Shown here one piece after another: positions 8,197-58,166 of a stretch of 64,000 bases of DNA. Source of the DNA: an uncultured cyanobacterium (GTDB lineage Bacteria; Cyanobacteriota; Cyanobacteriia; Cyanobacteriales; Cyanobacteriaceae); assembly GCA_963749915.1 (NCBI GenBank), contig CAVVOP010000008.1, forward strand, positions 832,001 through 896,000, written 5' to 3'. The notes beneath the pieces were generated by a model that did no database searches, was not told the DNA's origin, and saw only the letters and a list, made by a program, of their open reading frames with translations. Each line of letters begins with the position of its first letter. Position 1 is the first letter of the stretch. A program made the position numbers and the translations under genes.

Positions 8197-9678
8197 TTAA
8201 AGATGACTCTCAATACGTTGGCGAATATCCGAAAGGGTATAACTTTTGACTAGCTTACCATCGAGAAACACGATTTTTAAAGCACCTTGTTTTTCCTGTT
8301 CTACTGTTTGTTGTTCATATAAAACATAAGTATTGCTGTTTTCCTCAACTCTCAATAAACCTTTAGCGGATTTTTTTGTACCTCCGTCGGTTTTAGGATT
8401 TTTAAAAATATCTCGGCGATCGCCATTAACTATACCGCTAGTGGCTTTTACGGCAAATCCGAGGTTATCCCTGGTGACGTATTGATAGGTATATGAACCA
8501 ATGCCAAAAACCACATTCCCCGAAGCAAATCCTTTTTTATCCAATCGTTGTAAGATGTTATCAGCCCGATCGAGGGTAATAGAATCACCGTAAATCAAAC
8601 CAATATGAGAATCAAGCATTTTATATCCTGTGGGGCTAAGACTACCGCCAAAAATTTCCCATAAACATTCTACAGCACCTTTATATTCAGGGCTACCTTG
8701 GGAGGCCCTAAAATCTCCACAAATAATTTTAACAGGATCTCCACTATCAGGACGGATAACTAACTTACCATCCCGTGCTAGAATTTTATTCTTGAGGATG
8801 ACCGTATATTCCGTTATCACTTTCCAAAAATCCCAGGTATCGGCAACAACGGAAATAATACCTTTGGGGTATAAATCTTCGATGAGTCGGCGAAAGGTCT
8901 CTAATTCTCCGTCTTGCATACCCATGGCCATGACAGAATGTTCCGTAGCTGCCACAGAAACACCGATCATCTCATGATCTGCATTGGCACTATAATAATT
9001 TTCTAGTAGATCGATTGCTAATACCGTATCAGTACCACAAAAAGAAGTAAGGTGAGCTGCACCACTAATTATGGCATCCTGTACACTGGATAAACCCCGA
9101 AAAGAAAAATCATGACATTGAAAGGGTATAAAATCTAAGGGCGTTCCTGTTTTTAAGGCATAATTTGTCATTAACTTTTTATATTGATAGGCTGTTGTAG
9201 CAGATGTTATCGGTTTCCATAAATAACAGGACATCACTGACTCAATATAATTAGTTAACCAGAAAAAATCAGGATGAGTATTTACCACTGTCAATAGAGG
9301 TATTCCTATGGAAACTAGACTTCCCTCCGGCAATGCCTTAATTTTGAGAGGTAAATATCCTAAATCGTAGAGGGCACAAATATGTTCGAGAGGAATTGCA
9401 CCCACTCCCAAGGAAGTATCCATGCGTCTTTGATAGGCGGAAATTACCGTTTTTTTATCCTGTTGAAAAAAGTTTTCGTTCCAACAATCAATTAGGTAAT
9501 CTTTGATAAAATATTGTAAGCCAAAAAACACGACTCGAATGTCATCGGAATCTAAAACTTTGGCAAGACGACCACTGCGAGGGGTAAAATTAGCATAAAC
9601 TTCCGTTGTACCTTGAGGATATTGACGACGGTGATCGGTTTTGTAAAAATCAATGGCATTAAGGGGATTTATTTTCAT
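8197..9678 (-). CDS. nadV: Nicotinamide phosphoribosyltransferase (NAMPT family); probable start 9678, ORF extends to 9732
   Basis: DFYKTDH, HDFSFRG, ATEHSV, VIRPDSGDP, GIGSYTYQ..TRD, KKSAKG. Confidence 0.9.
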   Translation of the reverse strand: MKINPLNAIDFYKTDHRRQYPQGTTEVYANFTPRSGRLAKVLDSDDIRVVFFGLQYFIKDYLIDCWNENFFQQDKKTVISAYQRRMDTSLGVGAIPLEHICALYDLGYLPLKIKALPEGSLVSIGIPLLTVVNTHPDFFWLTNYIESVMSCYLWKPITSATTAYQYKKLMTNYALKTGTPLDFIPFQCHDFSFRGLSSVQDAIISGAAHLTSFCGTDTVLAIDLLENYYSANADHEMIGVSVAATEHSVMAMGMQDGELETFRRLIEDLYPKGIISVVADTWDFWKVITEYTVILKNKILARDGKLVIRPDSGDPVKIICGDFRASQGSPEYKGAVECLWEIFGGSLSPTGYKMLDSHIGLIYGDSITLDRADNILQRLDKKGFASGNVVFGIGSYTYQYVTRDNLGFAVKATSGIVNGDRRDIFKNPKTDGGTKKSAKGLLRVEENSNTYVLYEQQTVEQEKQGALKIVFLDGKLVKSYTLSDIRQRIESHL

Positions 9679-44066: not shown

Positions 44067-44747
44067 TCAGGTCAGACCTTTGGTGTCATCTTCGAGTTCC
44101 TCGACCATCCACTCACCACCGACCTTATCCCACTTCTTGACCTTAGCCAGTAAGTAAGCAAAGCAGGTGTTCTCGGGAATCTGAACTTTGCTAGAAGTAG
44201 TTGATGAGGAACTGGCTCCAACGTTCAAAGTGAAGCCCGATGTTCCCAGGGGGGCGCTCACCGAAACGCTGCCGCCAGTAGTCACCCGTGACGCGAGCTC
44301 CGCCTCCATCACGATCCACACGTCGCTCACGATCCGCGCGTCTTTCCCTTCTTCCTTAAGATTATTGCGTGCGACGTCCGCATGCTTGTTAAGCAGTCTT
44401 TTCAACGCGTTGCTGGGTACGCTGAGCTTGATCAGAACCAGGTTGGCTGATTTGGCTGCGCCGCGGCTGAAGGCAACCTGACCACCGGCAGCGGTCAGGT
44501 ACTTGATCCCAACGTTCACTTCCTTGTCGGAGAAGTTGTCCCATTCAATGAGGTAGGGGCCGGATGTCGTGACGTCAACCTTTGCAAGGTTAGCCGGACT
44601 GACGGTTCCTGCAAGGTATAAGTAAGGCGCTTTGCCCAAAGGCGTCTTCTTCTCTCCAAAAGACACAAGGTTGACATCTTCGCAACCACCTCGGAAATAG
44701 CTCTTGCCGGAGTAGACAAATTTGGAGTCAGAGATTTTAACTGTCAT
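44067..44747 (-). CDS. Gasdermin-like pore-forming protein (candidate)
   Basis: By-eye similarity to the gasdermin N-domain (LSVPSNALKRLL, ARIVSDV, KVQIPENTCFAYLLAKV); GGAG RBS; GC-richer than host genes. Confidence 0.6.
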   Translation of the reverse strand: MTVKISDSKFVYSGKSYFRGGCEDVNLVSFGEKKTPLGKAPYLYLAGTVSPANLAKVDVTTSGPYLIEWDNFSDKEVNVGIKYLTAAGGQVAFSRGAAKSANLVLIKLSVPSNALKRLLNKHADVARNNLKEEGKDARIVSDVWIVMEAELASRVTTGGSVSVSAPLGTSGFTLNVGASSSSTTSSKVQIPENTCFAYLLAKVKKWDKVGGEWMVEELEDDTKGLT

Positions 44748-50281: not shown

Positions 50282-50881
50282 TCAAAAAAAGGAAATTTGA
50301 CACCATTCGCACTTTTCTCCGTCGTTACCATTATGATCGATAGCCCAGACTCTCCATCTTAAGCTATCGCAACCTACATCTTTTGCTCTAAGATGTATTT
50401 TTGAACTATAAATAGGATTATTCATCAGACGAAACGCTACCCCACGTTTGATGAACCATGGATGATCTTCTGACCCACGCCATGCAGTTGGATCATCTTT
50501 GCTACTACGGCAGTCAATCTCGATTCCATAGGATGCCGCTCCTTCTACAGGATGCCAGTAAATAGGAAAAAAATAATTATCCGGTGGCCATTTCCTGGCT
50601 GAGTTGCACTTAGGTTCTTTCATCACAGGTGGAGGTAATTTAGCTGTCAGATCAGATGTCGATTCCGATGAGGTCGATGGTGGCAAAGAGGAAGGTTCTG
50701 GTATCGTTGAGGAAGGAGGAGTGTCTCTTGTTAGCAATGGACCTATTACAGCAGAGATTAATGTTGTAATAACTGTGACTACTCCTGTAATAATGGCAAT
50801 CGCGACAGCCTTGTCTCTTCCTTGAGAAGATTTCTTATTTTCTGGAGATTCATTTATCTTTGAAGGCTCTTGTTCGTTCAT
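50282..50881 (-). CDS. Membrane-anchored protein with a Pro/Ser linker and FnIII-like C-terminal domain
   Basis: TM helix, PS-rich linker, W.PVEGAASY.IEI and WRVWAID..G. Confidence 0.6.
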   Translation of the reverse strand: MNEQEPSKINESPENKKSSQGRDKAVAIAIITGVVTVITTLISAVIGPLLTRDTPPSSTIPEPSSLPPSTSSESTSDLTAKLPPPVMKEPKCNSARKWPPDNYFFPIYWHPVEGAASYGIEIDCRSSKDDPTAWRGSEDHPWFIKRGVAFRLMNNPIYSSKIHLRAKDVGCDSLRWRVWAIDHNGNDGEKCEWCQISFF

Positions 50882-50974: not shown

Positions 50975-51151
50975 TTAGCTGCAACAGTTTCCGTTCAAGA
51001 TTCGACGATCGTCCTCAAAGATATAGTTATTTATGATAACTCCTCCCATTCCAAATTCGAAAAGCTGCGACGGCACAAGAGAGGTAGCTTTAGCTAATCT
51101 CTTTACAAATACAATTCGCTTTTGTCCTAATGATTGCTTGAGGAGTCTTAT
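50975..51151 (-). pseudogene. Degenerate member of the leader-peptide family (ATA in place of ATG)
   Basis: IRLLKQSLGQKR..SLVPS|QLF matches the leader pattern of the neighbours; AAGGA upstream. Confidence 0.55.
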
Positions 51152-51198
51152 TGGCAATGTTCCTTCGCTCTCTTTTATTTTGGAAAAATAGATTAGAG

Positions 51199-51531
51199 TC
51201 AAATTCTAGAAAAGGGAGAACAAGGTCTTTCAACACAGGGACCTCGACGAACCTGAATACCTCCAAACCGAGAGTCGAAGCAATAAGTAACTTCTCTGAT
51301 GCTTTGTCGAAAGCCAAGAAATCCAAATGGTGGAATGGGCTGAAGCCGGCAACGGCTACATTCTTCAAACAGGCTAAAACAATTAAAAGGTGCTACTGGA
51401 ACTCCTTCTAGAATCTCTCTTGGGTCAAAGAAACCTGAATCAAAATTTGGTTGAGATGGAGCAATCTTGGCAGTAAGTGGTCTCATGTTACTGTTTCGAT
51501 TGGTGCCAACAGATTGTATTGGAATTTTCAT
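51199..51531 (-). CDS. Cys-rich precursor peptide A
   Basis: MKIPIQSVGTNR..KIAPS leader; 6 Cys in the core. Confidence 0.7.
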   Translation of the reverse strand: MKIPIQSVGTNRNSNMRPLTAKIAPSQPNFDSGFFDPREILEGVPVAPFNCFSLFEECSRCRLQPIPPFGFLGFRQSIREVTYCFDSRFGGIQVRRGPCVERPCSPFSRI

Positions 51532-51878
51532 CTTTCTCTTCTAGAAATAGTTCGGGTATTAATTTTACGTGAGGCTATATTAGGCTTTGATTCGATTAAG
51601 ATCACGATACTTTGCCTTTTACCAAACGGACGAAAAAGGGTTCTGTCTAAAACCAAATACTTGCTCAGGTAATCTAATTAGTAATACTCCTTAAATTGAT
51701 AAATTTTTCGAATAAAATCAATTATCGTTTGTTTTTGTGTATTGTGCTGTCGCTAAAACACTTAACACCTTACTAATAAGATCACAAAGAGCAATTAATC
51801 TTTTTTACCAATTTGTTTCAACGAGCAAGTAACCTCTTCCAAAAACCTGAAAATAGGTAAATTTTCTATTGTCCCTTT

Positions 51879-52136
51879 TTAACCAAAGCCAATAGTAAAG
51901 TTTTGTGCTATGCAAAACCCAAAAGGAATACAACCAAAAGTATTGTTGCAGATGCTAGTTAATCGGCAAGCAAAACCTTGGGGACAGTTAACGTATCCTA
52001 AAATCTCGCGACAAATACGACGATTATCACCAGGGCAACATGCCGCAGGATGCACTCCTACTTTATCTAGATTACTAGCGTGAACACTAATGATACTAGC
52101 TCTCACAGTAGAGTTAGCCTGTTTGGGAAGTTTCAT
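51879..52136 (-). CDS. Cys-rich precursor peptide B
   Basis: MKLPKQANSTVR..GVHPA leader; 8 Cys; GAGG RBS. Confidence 0.75.
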   Translation of the reverse strand: MKLPKQANSTVRASIISVHASNLDKVGVHPAACCPGDNRRICREILGYVNCPQGFACRLTSICNNTFGCIPFGFCIAQNFTIGFG

Positions 52137-52381
52137 TTTTCTATCCTCTTAAACAAAAATTTGAACGAATAAGTAATATAAGGTAGTTAATATTGCTAAA
52201 GACTCGTTATCTAATAAACCACGATCGCACTATTTTTTCAGCACTATTATCTGGACAAAAAGCACATCAGGCGATCGCTAATTCTAACTGAACGACTTTC
52301 TTTCCCTAACTCAAACACTTACGGTTTAAGAAATTCTGCCGTTTAATCTACCATTGTAAGATTGAGAGGTACGTACGCTAC

Positions 52382-52684
52382 CTAAGGGAAAACTGGCACG
52401 GGTCTTGGCCTCGCTTGGAATGGGAAAGGTGGGGATGCCGGATCCTCAGGAGGAAGCCCAGCAATCGTGCACGCAAAAGTGCAGCCGTCATGACAAATAT
52501 CAGGAGGAACCCATATAGGACAGGCAAGCTTGCAGAGATCTCGGCACAAGTTGCCGGGACCCTGCGGTTGCGGTTCGCGTAGGATAGTACCGAAGCGACC
52601 AACCCAAGCTGCATTAATGCCAGTATAAGAGGGCATTGCTCTTGTGCTGCGCGTAACATTGACGGATTGAACTGGGAGTCTCAT
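52382..52684 (-). CDS. Cys-rich precursor peptide C
   Basis: MRLPVQSVNVTR..GINAA leader; CX3CX3C-X8-CX3CX3C; AGGAGG RBS. Confidence 0.75.
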   Translation of the reverse strand: MRLPVQSVNVTRSTRAMPSYTGINAAWVGRFGTILREPQPQGPGNLCRDLCKLACPIWVPPDICHDGCTFACTIAGLPPEDPASPPFPFQARPRPVPVFP

Positions 52685-52849
52685 TTTTGCCTCCTTTTAC
52701 TAGATGATTGAATTAATTGGAAGTTTCATTTTTGTATTCTTCTTAAAAAGTCTAAATTTATCGAGTTGTAGTTTTACACGAAGACTACGAATTAAGCAAA
52801 TTCACGATCGCACTAACACACCCTACAAGATTAGCGATCGCACTAGGTT

Positions 52850-54441
52850 GGTGTCTTGAATTTTTCGCCACAGATATTAACCATAAAAAGGCGATCTGCT
52901 TGCAGCAGCGCTTCGCTCCGCCAAATCTCAAAGGCGATCATTAAACCTCAAAGGAGATCGTTAAACCTCAAAGGCGATCATTACCACGAAAAGATGGTGG
53001 TCTGCTTCATTAAATAATAGATGTCAGTAATTCAAAATTAAGGGAACAGTGAGTCAAGCCTCAGGGAAAGGGTCGGTTGTGTTTCGCGTGTTCTCGTTGG
53101 ACAACGAGGAAGAACAAAGTCAGACAACTCATTTCATTGGGAAAAGAGCCGATTTCATCAGCCTTACGACGAAATTCTTCAAAGAGGCGTTCGAGCAAGT
53201 TGGATGTCCGAATTCGGGGATGCAACTCCGCTTCAAATTGGTAAAAGGTGAAAGTCAGCTCAATATCTCGCAGAAAGACTTCTACCGCTTTCGCTTCTAA
53301 GTTTTGCCACTTTTTGACAAAAGCATTGAGTCGTTGCCGGGCCTCAATCCAAGACTGAGCACGATAGATATCATAAGCGTCTTCTTGAATCTCAAAGCGG
53401 CGTTGCTGTTTGGCTTGCTGCTCATCGAAGTCGGCAGTTGTTGTCTCGGACGAGGGAGACAACTGTTGATAGGTGAGATAGCGCTTCATTCCTCTCACCT
53501 TGTGAGTTGTGCATCGTTGCTGTTGGGCATTGGGTAAGCACTGTGTCATCACACCTGGCAGTCCTGAAATCCCATCACTGACTATGAGCTTAACCGCTTG
53601 GGGGTCGAGTCCTCGCTCAGTTAAGTGAGTGAAGAAATTTAGCCAAGATTGACTGTTTTCTCCTTCAGCTATTTCATAGTGCAACAACTGGTAGGTGCCA
53701 TCGGGCCAGACCGCCATAGCGGCTAAGATAACCCGCTCTTGAGCTTGGCGTACTTGACGAAGATGTCCAGCTCGGTCAAGTTTCTTCTCATCCAGTGTGT
53801 ATAAAATATCTATCCAGACTCCATCCACAATCAGAATCGGTGGGGTTACCTCAATCAGAGACTGACGCCGGATTTCCATCTGTTTTTGAGCCTCCAGAGT
53901 TACACGATTGACGGCAGTTAGTGAGAGAACACTGCCAAGTAGATGATACAATGCTTCTTGGAGATTTCGTAGAGATAATCCCAAGACATAAAGACACAGT
54001 GTCATGTCTAGTAAGCTCTGAAGCCCTCTTTGATAACGTTTGAGAATCTGCCATTCTCGTTCATGATTGGAGTCGCGCAGTTTGGGGACTCGTAACTCAG
54101 GGATTCTCCCATACTGAGTGTCCAACAGACGATGGAAATAACCTGAACGTCTTGCCTGAGGACCACTTCGGCTAGAGCGAAACGACTCTAACTCTTCCAC
54201 TAGGGCTGCTTCGACGGTGGCTTTGATAACTCCTGTAACTTCAGTACGCAGAGTGTTTTCCAGTTCTGAAGTAATTTCTGACTGAAAGCTTTGAGATTTG
54301 ACACGGAGAATTTGCTGTTCTCGTTCTGCGAGCTTCATAAACGAGTCCTTAAATATCAAGTTTAATTTCTTGGTTTATCTTGTTTATCTTGTTTATCCTG
54401 CTTTCATCAGCTTGTCAAGGTGGCGAAAAATTCAAGACACC
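52850..54441 (-). mobile_element. IS256-family element (transposase 53061-54359)
   Basis: 22-bp TIRs GGTGTCTTGAATTTTTCGCCAC / GTGGCGAAAAATTCAAGACACC; RSGY..T.YG...LRVPKLR, VDG, SDG..GL, QRC..H, RTSNLLER. Confidence 0.9.
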
Positions 54442-55042
54442 AACTAAAAAGATAATCAATCCCTTCCTGCCTTAACTCTTGTAACTCCTCCCACAGATTC
54501 CGAATGACTAAAATAGTTCTTTGTTTACTTCCCTTACCAACGATCGATAAATTAACTAAATCATCATCAACCCTAAAATTCGACCACTTCAAATTAACCG
54601 TCTCACTCACCCGTAAACCCAAACCAAACATCACCTTAACTAATAGCTTATCTCTAGTCGTTTGGGCATGGTCAATTAATTTCTGTATATCCTCCACCGT
54701 TAACAACTTCTGAGAAATAGTCTCATTTACCTTGGGACTCTCAATCATCGATGCAGGATTAACCTTGAGATAGCCTGTCTTCACACAGTAGGAAAACAAA
54801 CTCTTAATAATCATCAACTTCACCTTAATAGTTGATGCCTTTTGTTGTCTTAATTGTAGAGATCGCAGATAATCTTGAATATCCTCTAACATAATCTCCG
54901 ATAAATCCTTACCCGTAAATGCCATAAATTGTTGTATCGTACAGGTATATTGACTTTGCGTATGTACAGACCGCTTATTGGTTAACCAACTTAAGAGCAT
55001 TTCCGAGTCGTTGTTAGCACGAGTGACTTTCTCCGAGCGCAT
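54442..55042 (-). pseudogene. XerC/D-like tyrosine recombinase truncated by IS256
   Basis: SAM-like N-domain, GLRVSE and GKGSKQR; the frame runs into the IS256 TIR before HxxR/Y. Confidence 0.85.
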
Positions 55043-56031: not shown

Positions 56032-56139
56032 CTTTAGGGGTGACAACAACAAAACACTGTAAGCCGCTCTAGTTCTCGCTTATAAGTAGAGAATTAGTAC
56101 ATGCGTTTTGGTGAAGTTTAGTTTCAAATTGGGGTGAAG

Positions 56140-56320
56140 TGAGTCGAAGAACTGTTCGGCTAATGCTTACCAAGCTCCCCGACTCGGTTTGATTTTTGGA
56201 TGCTGTTACCAGCATCACAGGAACAGGCTGGACTCTTCGGATACACCCTCGACAGATTCCCACCTGCCAACTCTCGCGATGAAGAGACCTCCCGCCAACG
56301 CACACCACACGAAAACCGTT
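56140..56320 (-). ncRNA. 3' remnant of a DGR template repeat and downstream structured spacer RNA
   Basis: AACGGTTTTCGTGTGGTGTGC (NGFRVVC) followed by hairpins GATGCTG-GTAA-CAGCATC and GAGTCGGGGAGC..GTTCTTCGACTC. Confidence 0.7.
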
Positions 56321-57213
56321 CAGTCTTCGTCTTCCCCGATGTAAGTTACTATTTCTGACCCGAATTCGATCGCCTAAAATGCGGAAGCCAAGGAAGCTAG
56401 CACCGTATTTAGTGGCAAATAGTTGACTCTTGATGGGATGAATTTTTAGTCTGAGTATTGCCAAATACTCTTCTATTGCTATTCTGGCATCGGCGAGAAA
56501 ATCTCGTTCGTCGGCAAATAAAGCGAAATCATCAACGTATCTTACGTATTGAGAAGCTTTGAGAGTTTCTTTGACAAAGTGGTCAAAAGGATTGAGTATG
56601 ACGTTCGACCAGAATTGACTGGTTAAATTGCCTATAGGTATGCCTTTTCGCCTTTGTAAGGGGGTTAGCAAATCATCACCTGGAAAATATTCGATGACGG
56701 GTTCTTGTTCATTACTATTATCGATGATGGTATCAATCAGCCACAAAGTATCAGGACATTTGATTTTACGTCTGATTTGTCGTTTGAGAATTTGATGGTC
56801 GATACTGGGAAAATACTTCTTGATATCGCATTGCAAGACGTAGCGGCTGCGACGAAAAAACTCGATAAATCTTCTCAAAGCTCGATGGGTGACAAATCCC
56901 ACTCGGTTGGCATAAGAATCACGAATGAAAGTACGCTCAAAAATGGGAACGATTATATTACACAGGCCATGGTGAACCACTCTATCTCGGTAGGGAGCGG
57001 CAGAAATCAGACGGCTTTTAGGATCTCTGATATGAAAAGTTCGGTAATTTCCTGGTTGATATGTTTTAGCCGTAAGCTCCTGTTGTAATTTGATTAACTC
57101 CCCTTCTAAGTTGTAGTTGAAGTCTAAAATATTATCTCTAAATCTTTTGCCCAATTGTGCTTTTCTAGCGGCTAAATAGAGGTTATCAAATGTGATAATT
57201 TGGGGGTAGAGAT
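56321..57213 (-). pseudogene. DGR-type reverse transcriptase, clipped at both ends
   Basis: [51 protein letters not shown]; the first codons come from the IS1 end. Confidence 0.85.
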
Positions 57214-58166
57214 GGTCGTGCATCAAATAACTGTGGGATAGCTAATTAAGTCATGCCAAGTCCATCTCTGGTCACTCAATCCCGATCTTTGAGCGGCTGT
57301 TGTCCCTAACCGAATATTTTTCCAAATCCAGTTGAAATAGCTGACGACTAACCTTGCCGTTACTTTCGTTTGCTCCCAGACCTTGGCAAATTTATTTTGT
57401 TGCCGATGCCATCTTCCTGTCTGTTGCCGGAGAATTCCATTAGTCCTCTCCAGCCTTTGGTTTCCTTTTTTACTGATCTGGTGCTCTATCTCCTCTGTTA
57501 ATACCCTTTGATAACCCCTTAAGCCATCAGTATTCCAGTTTTGGCATTGGGTTTTTCCTTCTGTGGTCACGAGCATCTCCTCCAGAAGTTGATCCTTCCG
57601 TTTTCCTACACGAGCTGCCAGAATCAAGCCACTATCTTGAGCTAAACTAATTCCTATCCAGCAATCCCCGGCTATTATTTCGTCTGGTTCGCATTGGCAC
57701 TGTTTTGTCTTGGTGCGCGTTCCCTTGCGTCTTACGCCGACGCGGGGTCGCACCGCTTTTCGACAAATGACCACATTTCATCAGCGCTTACTTGTTCTGT
57801 TTCCACTTGTTGAACCTCAGCATTATGTATCATTTGAGCTTTTTGGCTAGCATCCCTAATCAAAGAAACTACGGTGCCGTAAGCCCTGCCACTGATTCGA
57901 CTCACTCCTCTCAGGCTACTGCCTTCAGCATGAGATTGAAGAATGGTATGAACTTCGGCCGGATTGAGATGGCGGTTATAGTAAAGAGTCTCAAAATGTT
58001 CAGGAAAAGTTTTACCACAATGAGGACATTTATAACCCTGGTGTCCTTTCTCAGTTTTGCCATGTTTGTAAGCTTTATGGTGACCGCAGAGAAGACATTT
58101 CATAGAAATAAATAGAATACTACTTTTCTCTCATACTCTCATCCCACAGATTTTTGTTTCACGACC
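57214..58166 (-). mobile_element. IS1-family element (InsA-like 57732-58103, InsB-like 57223-57774)
   Basis: TIRs GGTCGTGCATCAAATAACTGTGGGA / GGTCGTGAAACAAAAATCTGTGGGA; CxxC..CxxC, HTH, DEMWSFV, TDG, LERTNGILRQ. Confidence 0.9.

Follow-up and report, generated by a model that had tools for sequence, protein, structure and literature searches.

The closest described systems are the cyanobactin pathways, in which PatA acts on PatE-type precursors, as for patellamide and for the heterocyclase-free anacyclamide/piricyclamide group. According to the accessible part of PMC4663559, a cyanobactin cluster that is active invariably has genes for two proteases, A (N-terminal) and G (C-terminal/macrocyclase), and some piricyclamides have a disulfide. 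For PatA-type enzymes, the accessible part of PMC10885120 reports cleavage behind G(L/V)E(A/P)S. The domain of unknown function (DUF) of PatG did not bind PatE by nuclear magnetic resonance in a study whose accessible text leaves the PatA-type DUF outside its subject (PMC4259220), and the accessible text of PMC5460452 describes the canonical cluster only. The locus analyzed here lies in a stretch of 64,000 nucleotides (nt) from an uncultured cyanobacterium of the Cyanobacteriaceae, called the window below, and comprises three small genes for Cys-rich peptides, termed precursors A, B and C:

51199–51531, minus strand: precursor A, 110 amino acids (aa) with 6 Cys; a 26-aa leader ending in KIAPS and an 84-aa core
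51879–52136, minus strand: precursor B, 85 aa with 8 Cys; a 31-aa leader ending in GVHPA and a 54-aa core
52382–52684, minus strand: precursor C, 100 aa with 6 Cys; a 26-aa leader ending in GINAA and a 74-aa core

All three frames are intact and co-oriented, with a purine-rich stretch 5' of each. Their common leader shows an M[KR][LI]PxQx5R box and, further on, a [GK][VI]x[PA][SA] site. We consider it reasonably probable that A, B and C belong, as precursors, to a single-protease peptide system of wide distribution, that the protease was lost in a deletion associated with an insertion sequence (IS), and that the array is stranded and unprocessed in this genome.

The genome comprises 4.69 Mb at 37.5% GC in 34 contigs, with a marker completeness of 100%, and carries the array on contig C8. 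The regular expression M[KRQ][LIM]P.[QLN].{5}R, run over six frames of all 34 contigs, matched exactly three times, namely at A, B and C. A two-box position-specific scoring matrix (PSSM), built from 147 family sequences that excluded the window peptides and P0002 (the homologue of B, see below) and that had been collected by a hidden Markov model (HMM) whose 17 rows included the three window leaders, placed A, B and C at ranks 1–3 of 9,377,070 genome positions with 26.6–34.3 bits, while all other positions scored at most 8 bits. With an HMM from the same 147-sequence set, they took ranks 1–3 of 228,553 genome segments. Thus, the three co-oriented small open reading frames (ORFs) with a common leader and cores with 6, 8 and 6 Cys, as noted in a preliminary description of this DNA, were confirmed. 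No Pfam or NCBIfam model matched A, B or C, and neither did TIGR03678, TIGR04446 or Pfam DUF5837. Inspection of the three sequences also bore out that a LAELSEE-type site and an AYD/SYD/FAGD-type follower are missing (0/3).

The leader was expected to define a family, and it did. The alignment of 17 rows yielded an HMM; searched against 1.84 billion representatives, it matched 173 clusters at 50% identity (E ≤ 0.001). Two of the 150 HMM matches listed were window peptides, precursor A being recovered as P0094, and one (P0125) was an unrelated repeat protein. Together with B and P0002, these matches formed a parsed set of 152 sequences, 140 of them with a recognisable site and 12 not parsed. 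GVEAS (27), GINPS (8) and GVDPS (5) were the commonest sites among the 140, and this consensus fits the signal G(L/V)E(A/P)S as given in the accessible part of PMC10885120, in agreement with the PatA-like cleavage signal proposed at the outset. The window sites KIAPS, GVHPA and GINAA are degenerate variants of it. Cys-containing cores (91 of the 140) had even Cys counts in 87 cases and odd counts in 4 (83 versus 4 without window-related rows), and the remaining 49 cores are Cys-free and look like amphipathic helices. A LAELSEE-type site or follower was found in none of 148 family sequences. Four of ten family peptides matched TIGR04446 or TIGR03678, the PirE/PatE-type models, weakly over the N-terminal box (E 1e-4 to 1e-2, below cut-off). 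The earlier claim of a cyanobactin-related leader was supported.

The window peptides show the family pattern, i.e., an LPxQx5R box, a site 9–15 residues later and a variable core whose Cys count is even. Their leaders are without the usual Pro9, which 144 of 147 family sequences have. A pattern for Pro9-less leaders matched 32 times in genome_contigs; 28 matches were chance and were dropped, and the four genuine ones, from three lineages including one planctomycete record, all stood behind a protease gene. In metagenomes, 8 of 11 matches were genuine (3 were chance and were dropped), and a protease gene was present in front in 6/6 assessable loci.

Close relatives of A and C outside their own genome were not found among 5.8 billion proteins. 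Two matches of protein C among 40 relatives were both chance, and the ESM Atlas returned for C only matches below 0.9 (DUF5837 at 0.76). Precursor B has a single homologue, P0002, which is 79% identical; its 8 Cys are all conserved, as are 30 of 31 leader residues, while the inter-Cys loops vary. Such conservation is typical of a constant scaffold that carries variable loops. No further relatives of B were present in JGI-type metagenome contigs.

The preliminary description had predicted that the leader would co-occur with PatA/PatG-type S8 proteases. Among 300 other genomes of the order, 23 had a strong leader match (E ≤ 0.001), and the PatG_C domain (PF18065) was present in 23/23 of them, compared with 80/300 overall. 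The prediction was thereby upheld. Seven of these 23 genomes had given seed sequences and 16 had not, and in 15 of the 16 non-seed genomes the leader match was located at most 1 kb downstream of a PatG_C domain. Three genomes with weak matches (G557, G559 and G600; E 0.003–0.006; frames of 33, 20 and 420 aa) had no PatG_C; they were judged to be chance and stand outside the 23/23. A degenerate DNA pattern screened over 401 genomes of the phylum matched 22, about half of them by chance as shown by translation, and led to loci with such peptides behind a protease gene.

For locus architecture, 26 loci of 6–19 kb were fetched. Exactly one S8 domain and one DUF were found in 21 of them, with YcaO also present in 2; of the rest, one was a true multi-protease cyanobactin cluster (L091), one was cut by a contig end and three held peptides only. 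In the usual locus, a single gene for a PatA-type S8+DUF protease precedes the precursor genes, whose cores are even-Cys or amphipathic, and neither macrocyclase nor follower is present. The partner protease consists of S8, PatG_D and PatG_C domains. All six proteases tested passed TIGR03895 (698–843 bits; cut-off 421), the Asp/His/Ser triad is kept in 18/18 aligned, and the partner proteases are closer to N-terminal proteases (4h6w, 514 bits) than to macrocyclases (4h6x, 278 bits). Complex prediction for the L039 protease with residues 1–30 of its first peptide, using alignments, scored 0.00 in two runs. The neighbouring genes vary and include patatin, Tle1-like and GDSL lipases, an LCM-type methyltransferase, a glycosyltransferase, STAND or sigma/TPR regulators and PatB-like genes.

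The system therefore resembles the cyanobactins in its PatA-type S8 partner with PatG_D/PatG_C DUF, in its cleavage-site consensus, in the weak matches to the PirE/PatE-type models and in having several precursors per cluster. It differs from them in that 21 of 26 related loci hold one protease only and this genome neither an A nor a G protease. Moreover, no macrocyclase, follower, LAELSEE site or prenyltransferase was seen, and the window cores of 54–84 aa contrast with 7–20 aa in heterocycle-free cyanobactins, according to the accessible part of PMC4663559. The module resembles the first step of cyanobactin biosynthesis in its predicted working, yet lies outside the membership criteria for cyanobactins. 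No description of a single-protease, Cys-rich module was found in the literature, most subscription journals and the supplements lying outside the coverage; a single-protease module with an LPxQ leader is apparently widespread and undescribed.

The small proteins PatB, AcyB and McaB (TIGR04220) have the same N-terminal box; the L010 protein, which starts with MRLPKQAAPVKR, matches at 120 bits. The body of PatB has no counterpart in the window peptides, whose box is followed by a site of the cleavage type and by unrelated cores. PatB-like genes with a Cys-rich tail of the form CGC...C...C were observed inside single-protease loci (L038, L039, L074, L088 and L076, at 8852–9088 with 80 bits), which suggests that PatB itself is a decayed or specialised precursor of the LPxQ-leader family. 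In eight loci (L038, L039, L074, L077, L083, L086, L088 and L089), Cys-free amphipathic cores follow GVEAS and are accompanied by an LCM-type methyltransferase, often also by a patatin or Tle1-like lipase; this subtype is a candidate source of C-terminally methylated helical peptides. L088 (13062–13804) and L089 (5024–5759) carry the N-terminal box on acidic, nearly Cys-free proteins of 105–126 aa with no obvious cleavage site. In L040 and L082, a glycosyltransferase gene lies directly 3' of a Cys-rich precursor gene, and their products are possibly glycosylated disulfide peptides.

The even Cys counts (87 versus 4) favour the proposed disulfide-stapled cores, with a pairing that would amount to 3, 4 and 3 bonds in A, B and C. 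Structure models of the cores were of modest confidence (mean predicted local distance difference test (pLDDT) 64–66). In the AlphaFold2 model of the C core, helices occupy core positions 17–28 and 35–48 with a pLDDT of 75–78. The core is thus predicted to be a helix-loop-helix hairpin with Cx3Cx3C pairs; its sequence reads Cx3Cx3C-x8-Cx3Cx3C and continues into a Pro-rich tail. Fold searches with it gave nothing above noise. The B core model (pLDDT 66) had 19 structural matches, all to small disulfide-rich chains, the best with a Z of 3.2, which is at noise level, and a root-mean-square deviation of 1.8 over 31 residues; in the proposed reading, this core would be a compact 4-disulfide domain. 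The disulfide mini-proteins nearest in likeness to the C and B cores are, as we presume, eukaryotic alpha-hairpinin-type helical hairpins and cystine-knot peptides, respectively. With the alpha-hairpinins, the C core would share the Cys spacing given above and the modelled helical hairpin. Differences from the eukaryotic mini-proteins are the absence of demonstrated sequence homology, the noise-level Z, the absence of a signal peptide and the bacterial leader.

In an intact module, the precursors would be made in the cytoplasm, and the PatA-type subtilisin would cut after G(V/I)x(P/A)(S/A), thereby removing the leader of 26–31 residues. For A, B and C, the predicted new N-termini would be QPNF, ACCP and WVGR. 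The released core would fold as a disulfide mini-protein. The cores may be a diversifying set of exported peptides that act extracellularly, with competition or defence as a plausible role; the toxin or bacteriocin activity suggested in the preliminary description is conjectural. In this genome, the protease would have gone through an IS-associated deletion just upstream, and as a consequence the array is probably stranded.

The preliminary description had assumed maturation in trans. This was not borne out, since five genome-wide searches for a PatA-type protease or DUF were negative. Profile searches of this genome with PF18065 and PF18047 gave nothing and their built-in controls stayed silent, though PF18065 matched 80 other genomes. 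TIGR03895 found only a generic S8 protease (85 bits), tblastn with 7 family proteases found no PatA-type gene or DUF remnant, and a DUF HMM at E ≤ 10 found no DUF remnant. Three other S8 proteases are encoded in this genome, with different architectures and none with the DUF. Of the 24 genomes with a strong leader match, this one alone has no PatG_C domain.

Directly upstream of the array, an IS and a cut integrase gene stand instead of an S8+DUF protease gene, and the array itself is bordered by two proposed relics:

52847–54444, minus strand: IS of the Mutator/IS256 type; transposase gene at 53061–54359 (PF00872, E 2e-59), perfect 25-nt terminal inverted repeats
54407–55042, minus strand: tyrosine integrase gene, cut at the IS end; PF00589 matches only positions 2–86 of 172
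52700–52729, minus strand: 9-codon stub of a fourth precursor gene, with the leader start only and no core; the most upstream gene of the array
50975–51151, minus strand: ATA-start ORF, possibly a decayed copy; membership of the array not established

The IS end lies 117 nt upstream of the stub, at the position where relatives have the protease gene. An IS of the Mutator/IS256 family normally leaves a target-site duplication. Here, the flanks differ and no such duplication is present, and the missing C-terminal half of the integrase is too large for the 117 nt on the other side of the IS. Since the target duplication is missing and the integrase is cut in mid-gene, with the remainder not beside the stub, the IS joins two formerly separate sequences. 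A precedent is given by L137, L140 and L143, loci of one lineage that keep the peptides and only the last 124 codons of the DUF, a loss of 2.4 kb relative to the intact L079. Within the IS end, three direct repeats of 20–21 nt were observed at 52923–52983, and one contig of an RNA run shows a joint going back 44 nt there.

Both relics had been proposed earlier, and only the stub withstood closer analysis. The start of the stub and its upstream DNA, including the ribosome-binding region, are 81% identical to B over 31 nt. A contig of X1, an unrelated-looking public DNA run, covers 52587–52829 with 0 differences, confirming the stub base for base. The ATA-start ORF is unproven as a member of the array. 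It has only 2 Cys and no Pro at a position invariant in 147/147 profile sequences, and 2372 genome positions score equally well with the PSSM, a number that falls to 102 when its ATA is taken as a start codon. By eye, a likeness to the start of C is seen over the first 20 nt of the ORF, and from its sequence it is possibly a decayed copy. A promoter and terminator scan of the array gave no excess over shuffles. The public runs, 13 in number, each held only 5–13% of the words, mostly IS and repeats; the sole RNA run found (X7) had no contig spanning the array, and such contigs are unable to show absence.

Several points weigh against loss of the protease by deletion and a stranded array. No close relative of the array with its upstream DNA was found; the deletion is therefore deduced from the junction alone, and the array may have arrived already protease-free. 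The assembly is in 34 contigs, and the gene for the enzyme could lie on a small replicon that was not assembled. The peptide-only loci L087 and L081 occur in genomes with the protease elsewhere, which makes trans action plausible in the family. An apparent orphan locus in G486 was rejected as a contig break. The co-occurrence counts overstate the association, since kin are not independent. Finally, the frames of A, B and C are unbroken and their Cys sets complete, a state in keeping with recent loss of the protease and likewise with peptides that are still in use.

The alternative that survives best, though still unlikely, is that the array arrived as a cargo fragment on mobile DNA and that the protease was never present in this lineage, with the same biochemistry and a different history. 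The array sits amid genes for IS, integrase, ParA and toxin-antitoxin pairs, in an island that has pieces in common with small contigs; the array DNA was not found in 6/6 congeneric genomes searched, and leader or PatG_C was found in 0/15 genomes of the taxonomic family. Against it, the cut integrase and the lack of a target duplication at the IS mark the exact place of the protease gene as the site of a deletion or rearrangement, an event that could have occurred in a donor.

A functioning array in this genome is rather improbable. It would require that the precursors be matured in trans, either by a PatA-type protease encoded on DNA missing from the assembly or by a host protease of unrelated type. 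The three intact ORFs, peptide-only loci such as L087, the three other S8 proteases and the fragmented assembly would agree with activity. The 100% marker completeness together with the five negative searches, the absence of the DUF from the three S8 proteases, the exceptional position among the 24 strong-match genomes and the decay of the first gene of the array to a stub speak against it. A broader conjecture, which we regard as improbable to a similar degree, is that the LPxQx5R box predates cyanobactin chemistry and acts as a docking tag of universal use. It would be read by a PatA-type protein, through the protease domain or the DUF, and would route any cargo (disulfide mini-proteins, amphipathic helices, PatB, PatE) via one processing and export path; the peptides would then form hypervariable venom-like libraries, and protease-free arrays would be functional in trans.

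It is also quite unlikely that the cysteines form no disulfides and bind metal in the cytoplasm, in a metallothionein-like or zinc-ribbon-like manner. The cytoplasm is reducing, and CxxC and Cx3C pairs can bind zinc; the precursors are without signal peptide, and no conserved exporter or oxidase was found beside them in the loci inspected. Even Cys parity is, however, expected for disulfides and not for metal sites, and with 49/140 parsed cores Cys-free and amphipathic-looking, the leader carries non-metal cargo too. Heterocyclisation of the cores to thiazolines by YcaO, as in canonical cyanobactins, is very improbable: a YcaO-type gene on contig C21 scores above the TIGR03604 cut-off and YcaO occurs near 2/26 related loci, but the C21 gene is broken across two reading frames and its locus is a different one, of the kinase type, 24/26 loci are without YcaO, a LAELSEE-type site is missing from the window peptides and from 148 family sequences, and the even Cys parity would be left unexplained.

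As a trans-acting maturase, the C21 YcaO was rejected, being a frame-split gene in another locus type. Its locus (L145, C21:163302–177662) comprises a STAND regulator, the frameshifted YcaO, a toxin-antitoxin pair, an amidohydrolase and a large kinase. Genes equivalent to the C21 YcaO and the amidohydrolase are also present in L076, where they flank a PatA-type peptide operon.

Three further genes of the window were recorded. Directly downstream of the array, a 199-aa ORF (50282–50881, minus strand) combines an N-terminal membrane segment, a Pro/Ser linker and a C-terminal domain containing Cys and Trp. It had no Pfam, NCBIfam or PADLOC match and only ESM Atlas matches below 0.9, and it shows no similarity to a 210-aa gene in L079; it was not counted as a component of the system. 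A 226-aa ORF (44067–44747, minus strand) has a weak Pfam Gasdermin match (E 0.003, below cut-off) and no PADLOC or PDB sequence match. A stand-alone reverse transcriptase gene (56069–57226, minus strand; 385 aa) lies behind an IS1-type element, its best PADLOC matches being the generic reverse transcriptase and UG17/DRT models.

The locus is probably stranded, and as a study site for the system it is therefore less useful than as an example of a decaying cassette and a source of three additional cores. The module as such represents a stripped-down cyanobactin pathway with one leader protease and no tailoring. Since it has neither heterocyclase nor macrocyclase, it isolates two old questions of cyanobactin biology, i.e., what reads the N-terminal box common to PatB and PatE-type proteins, and which role the DUF of PatA and PatG plays. 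Its cargo consists of hundreds of unrelated disulfide-type and amphipathic peptides outside Pfam and NCBIfam models, and is an unmined source of bacterial disulfide mini-proteins.
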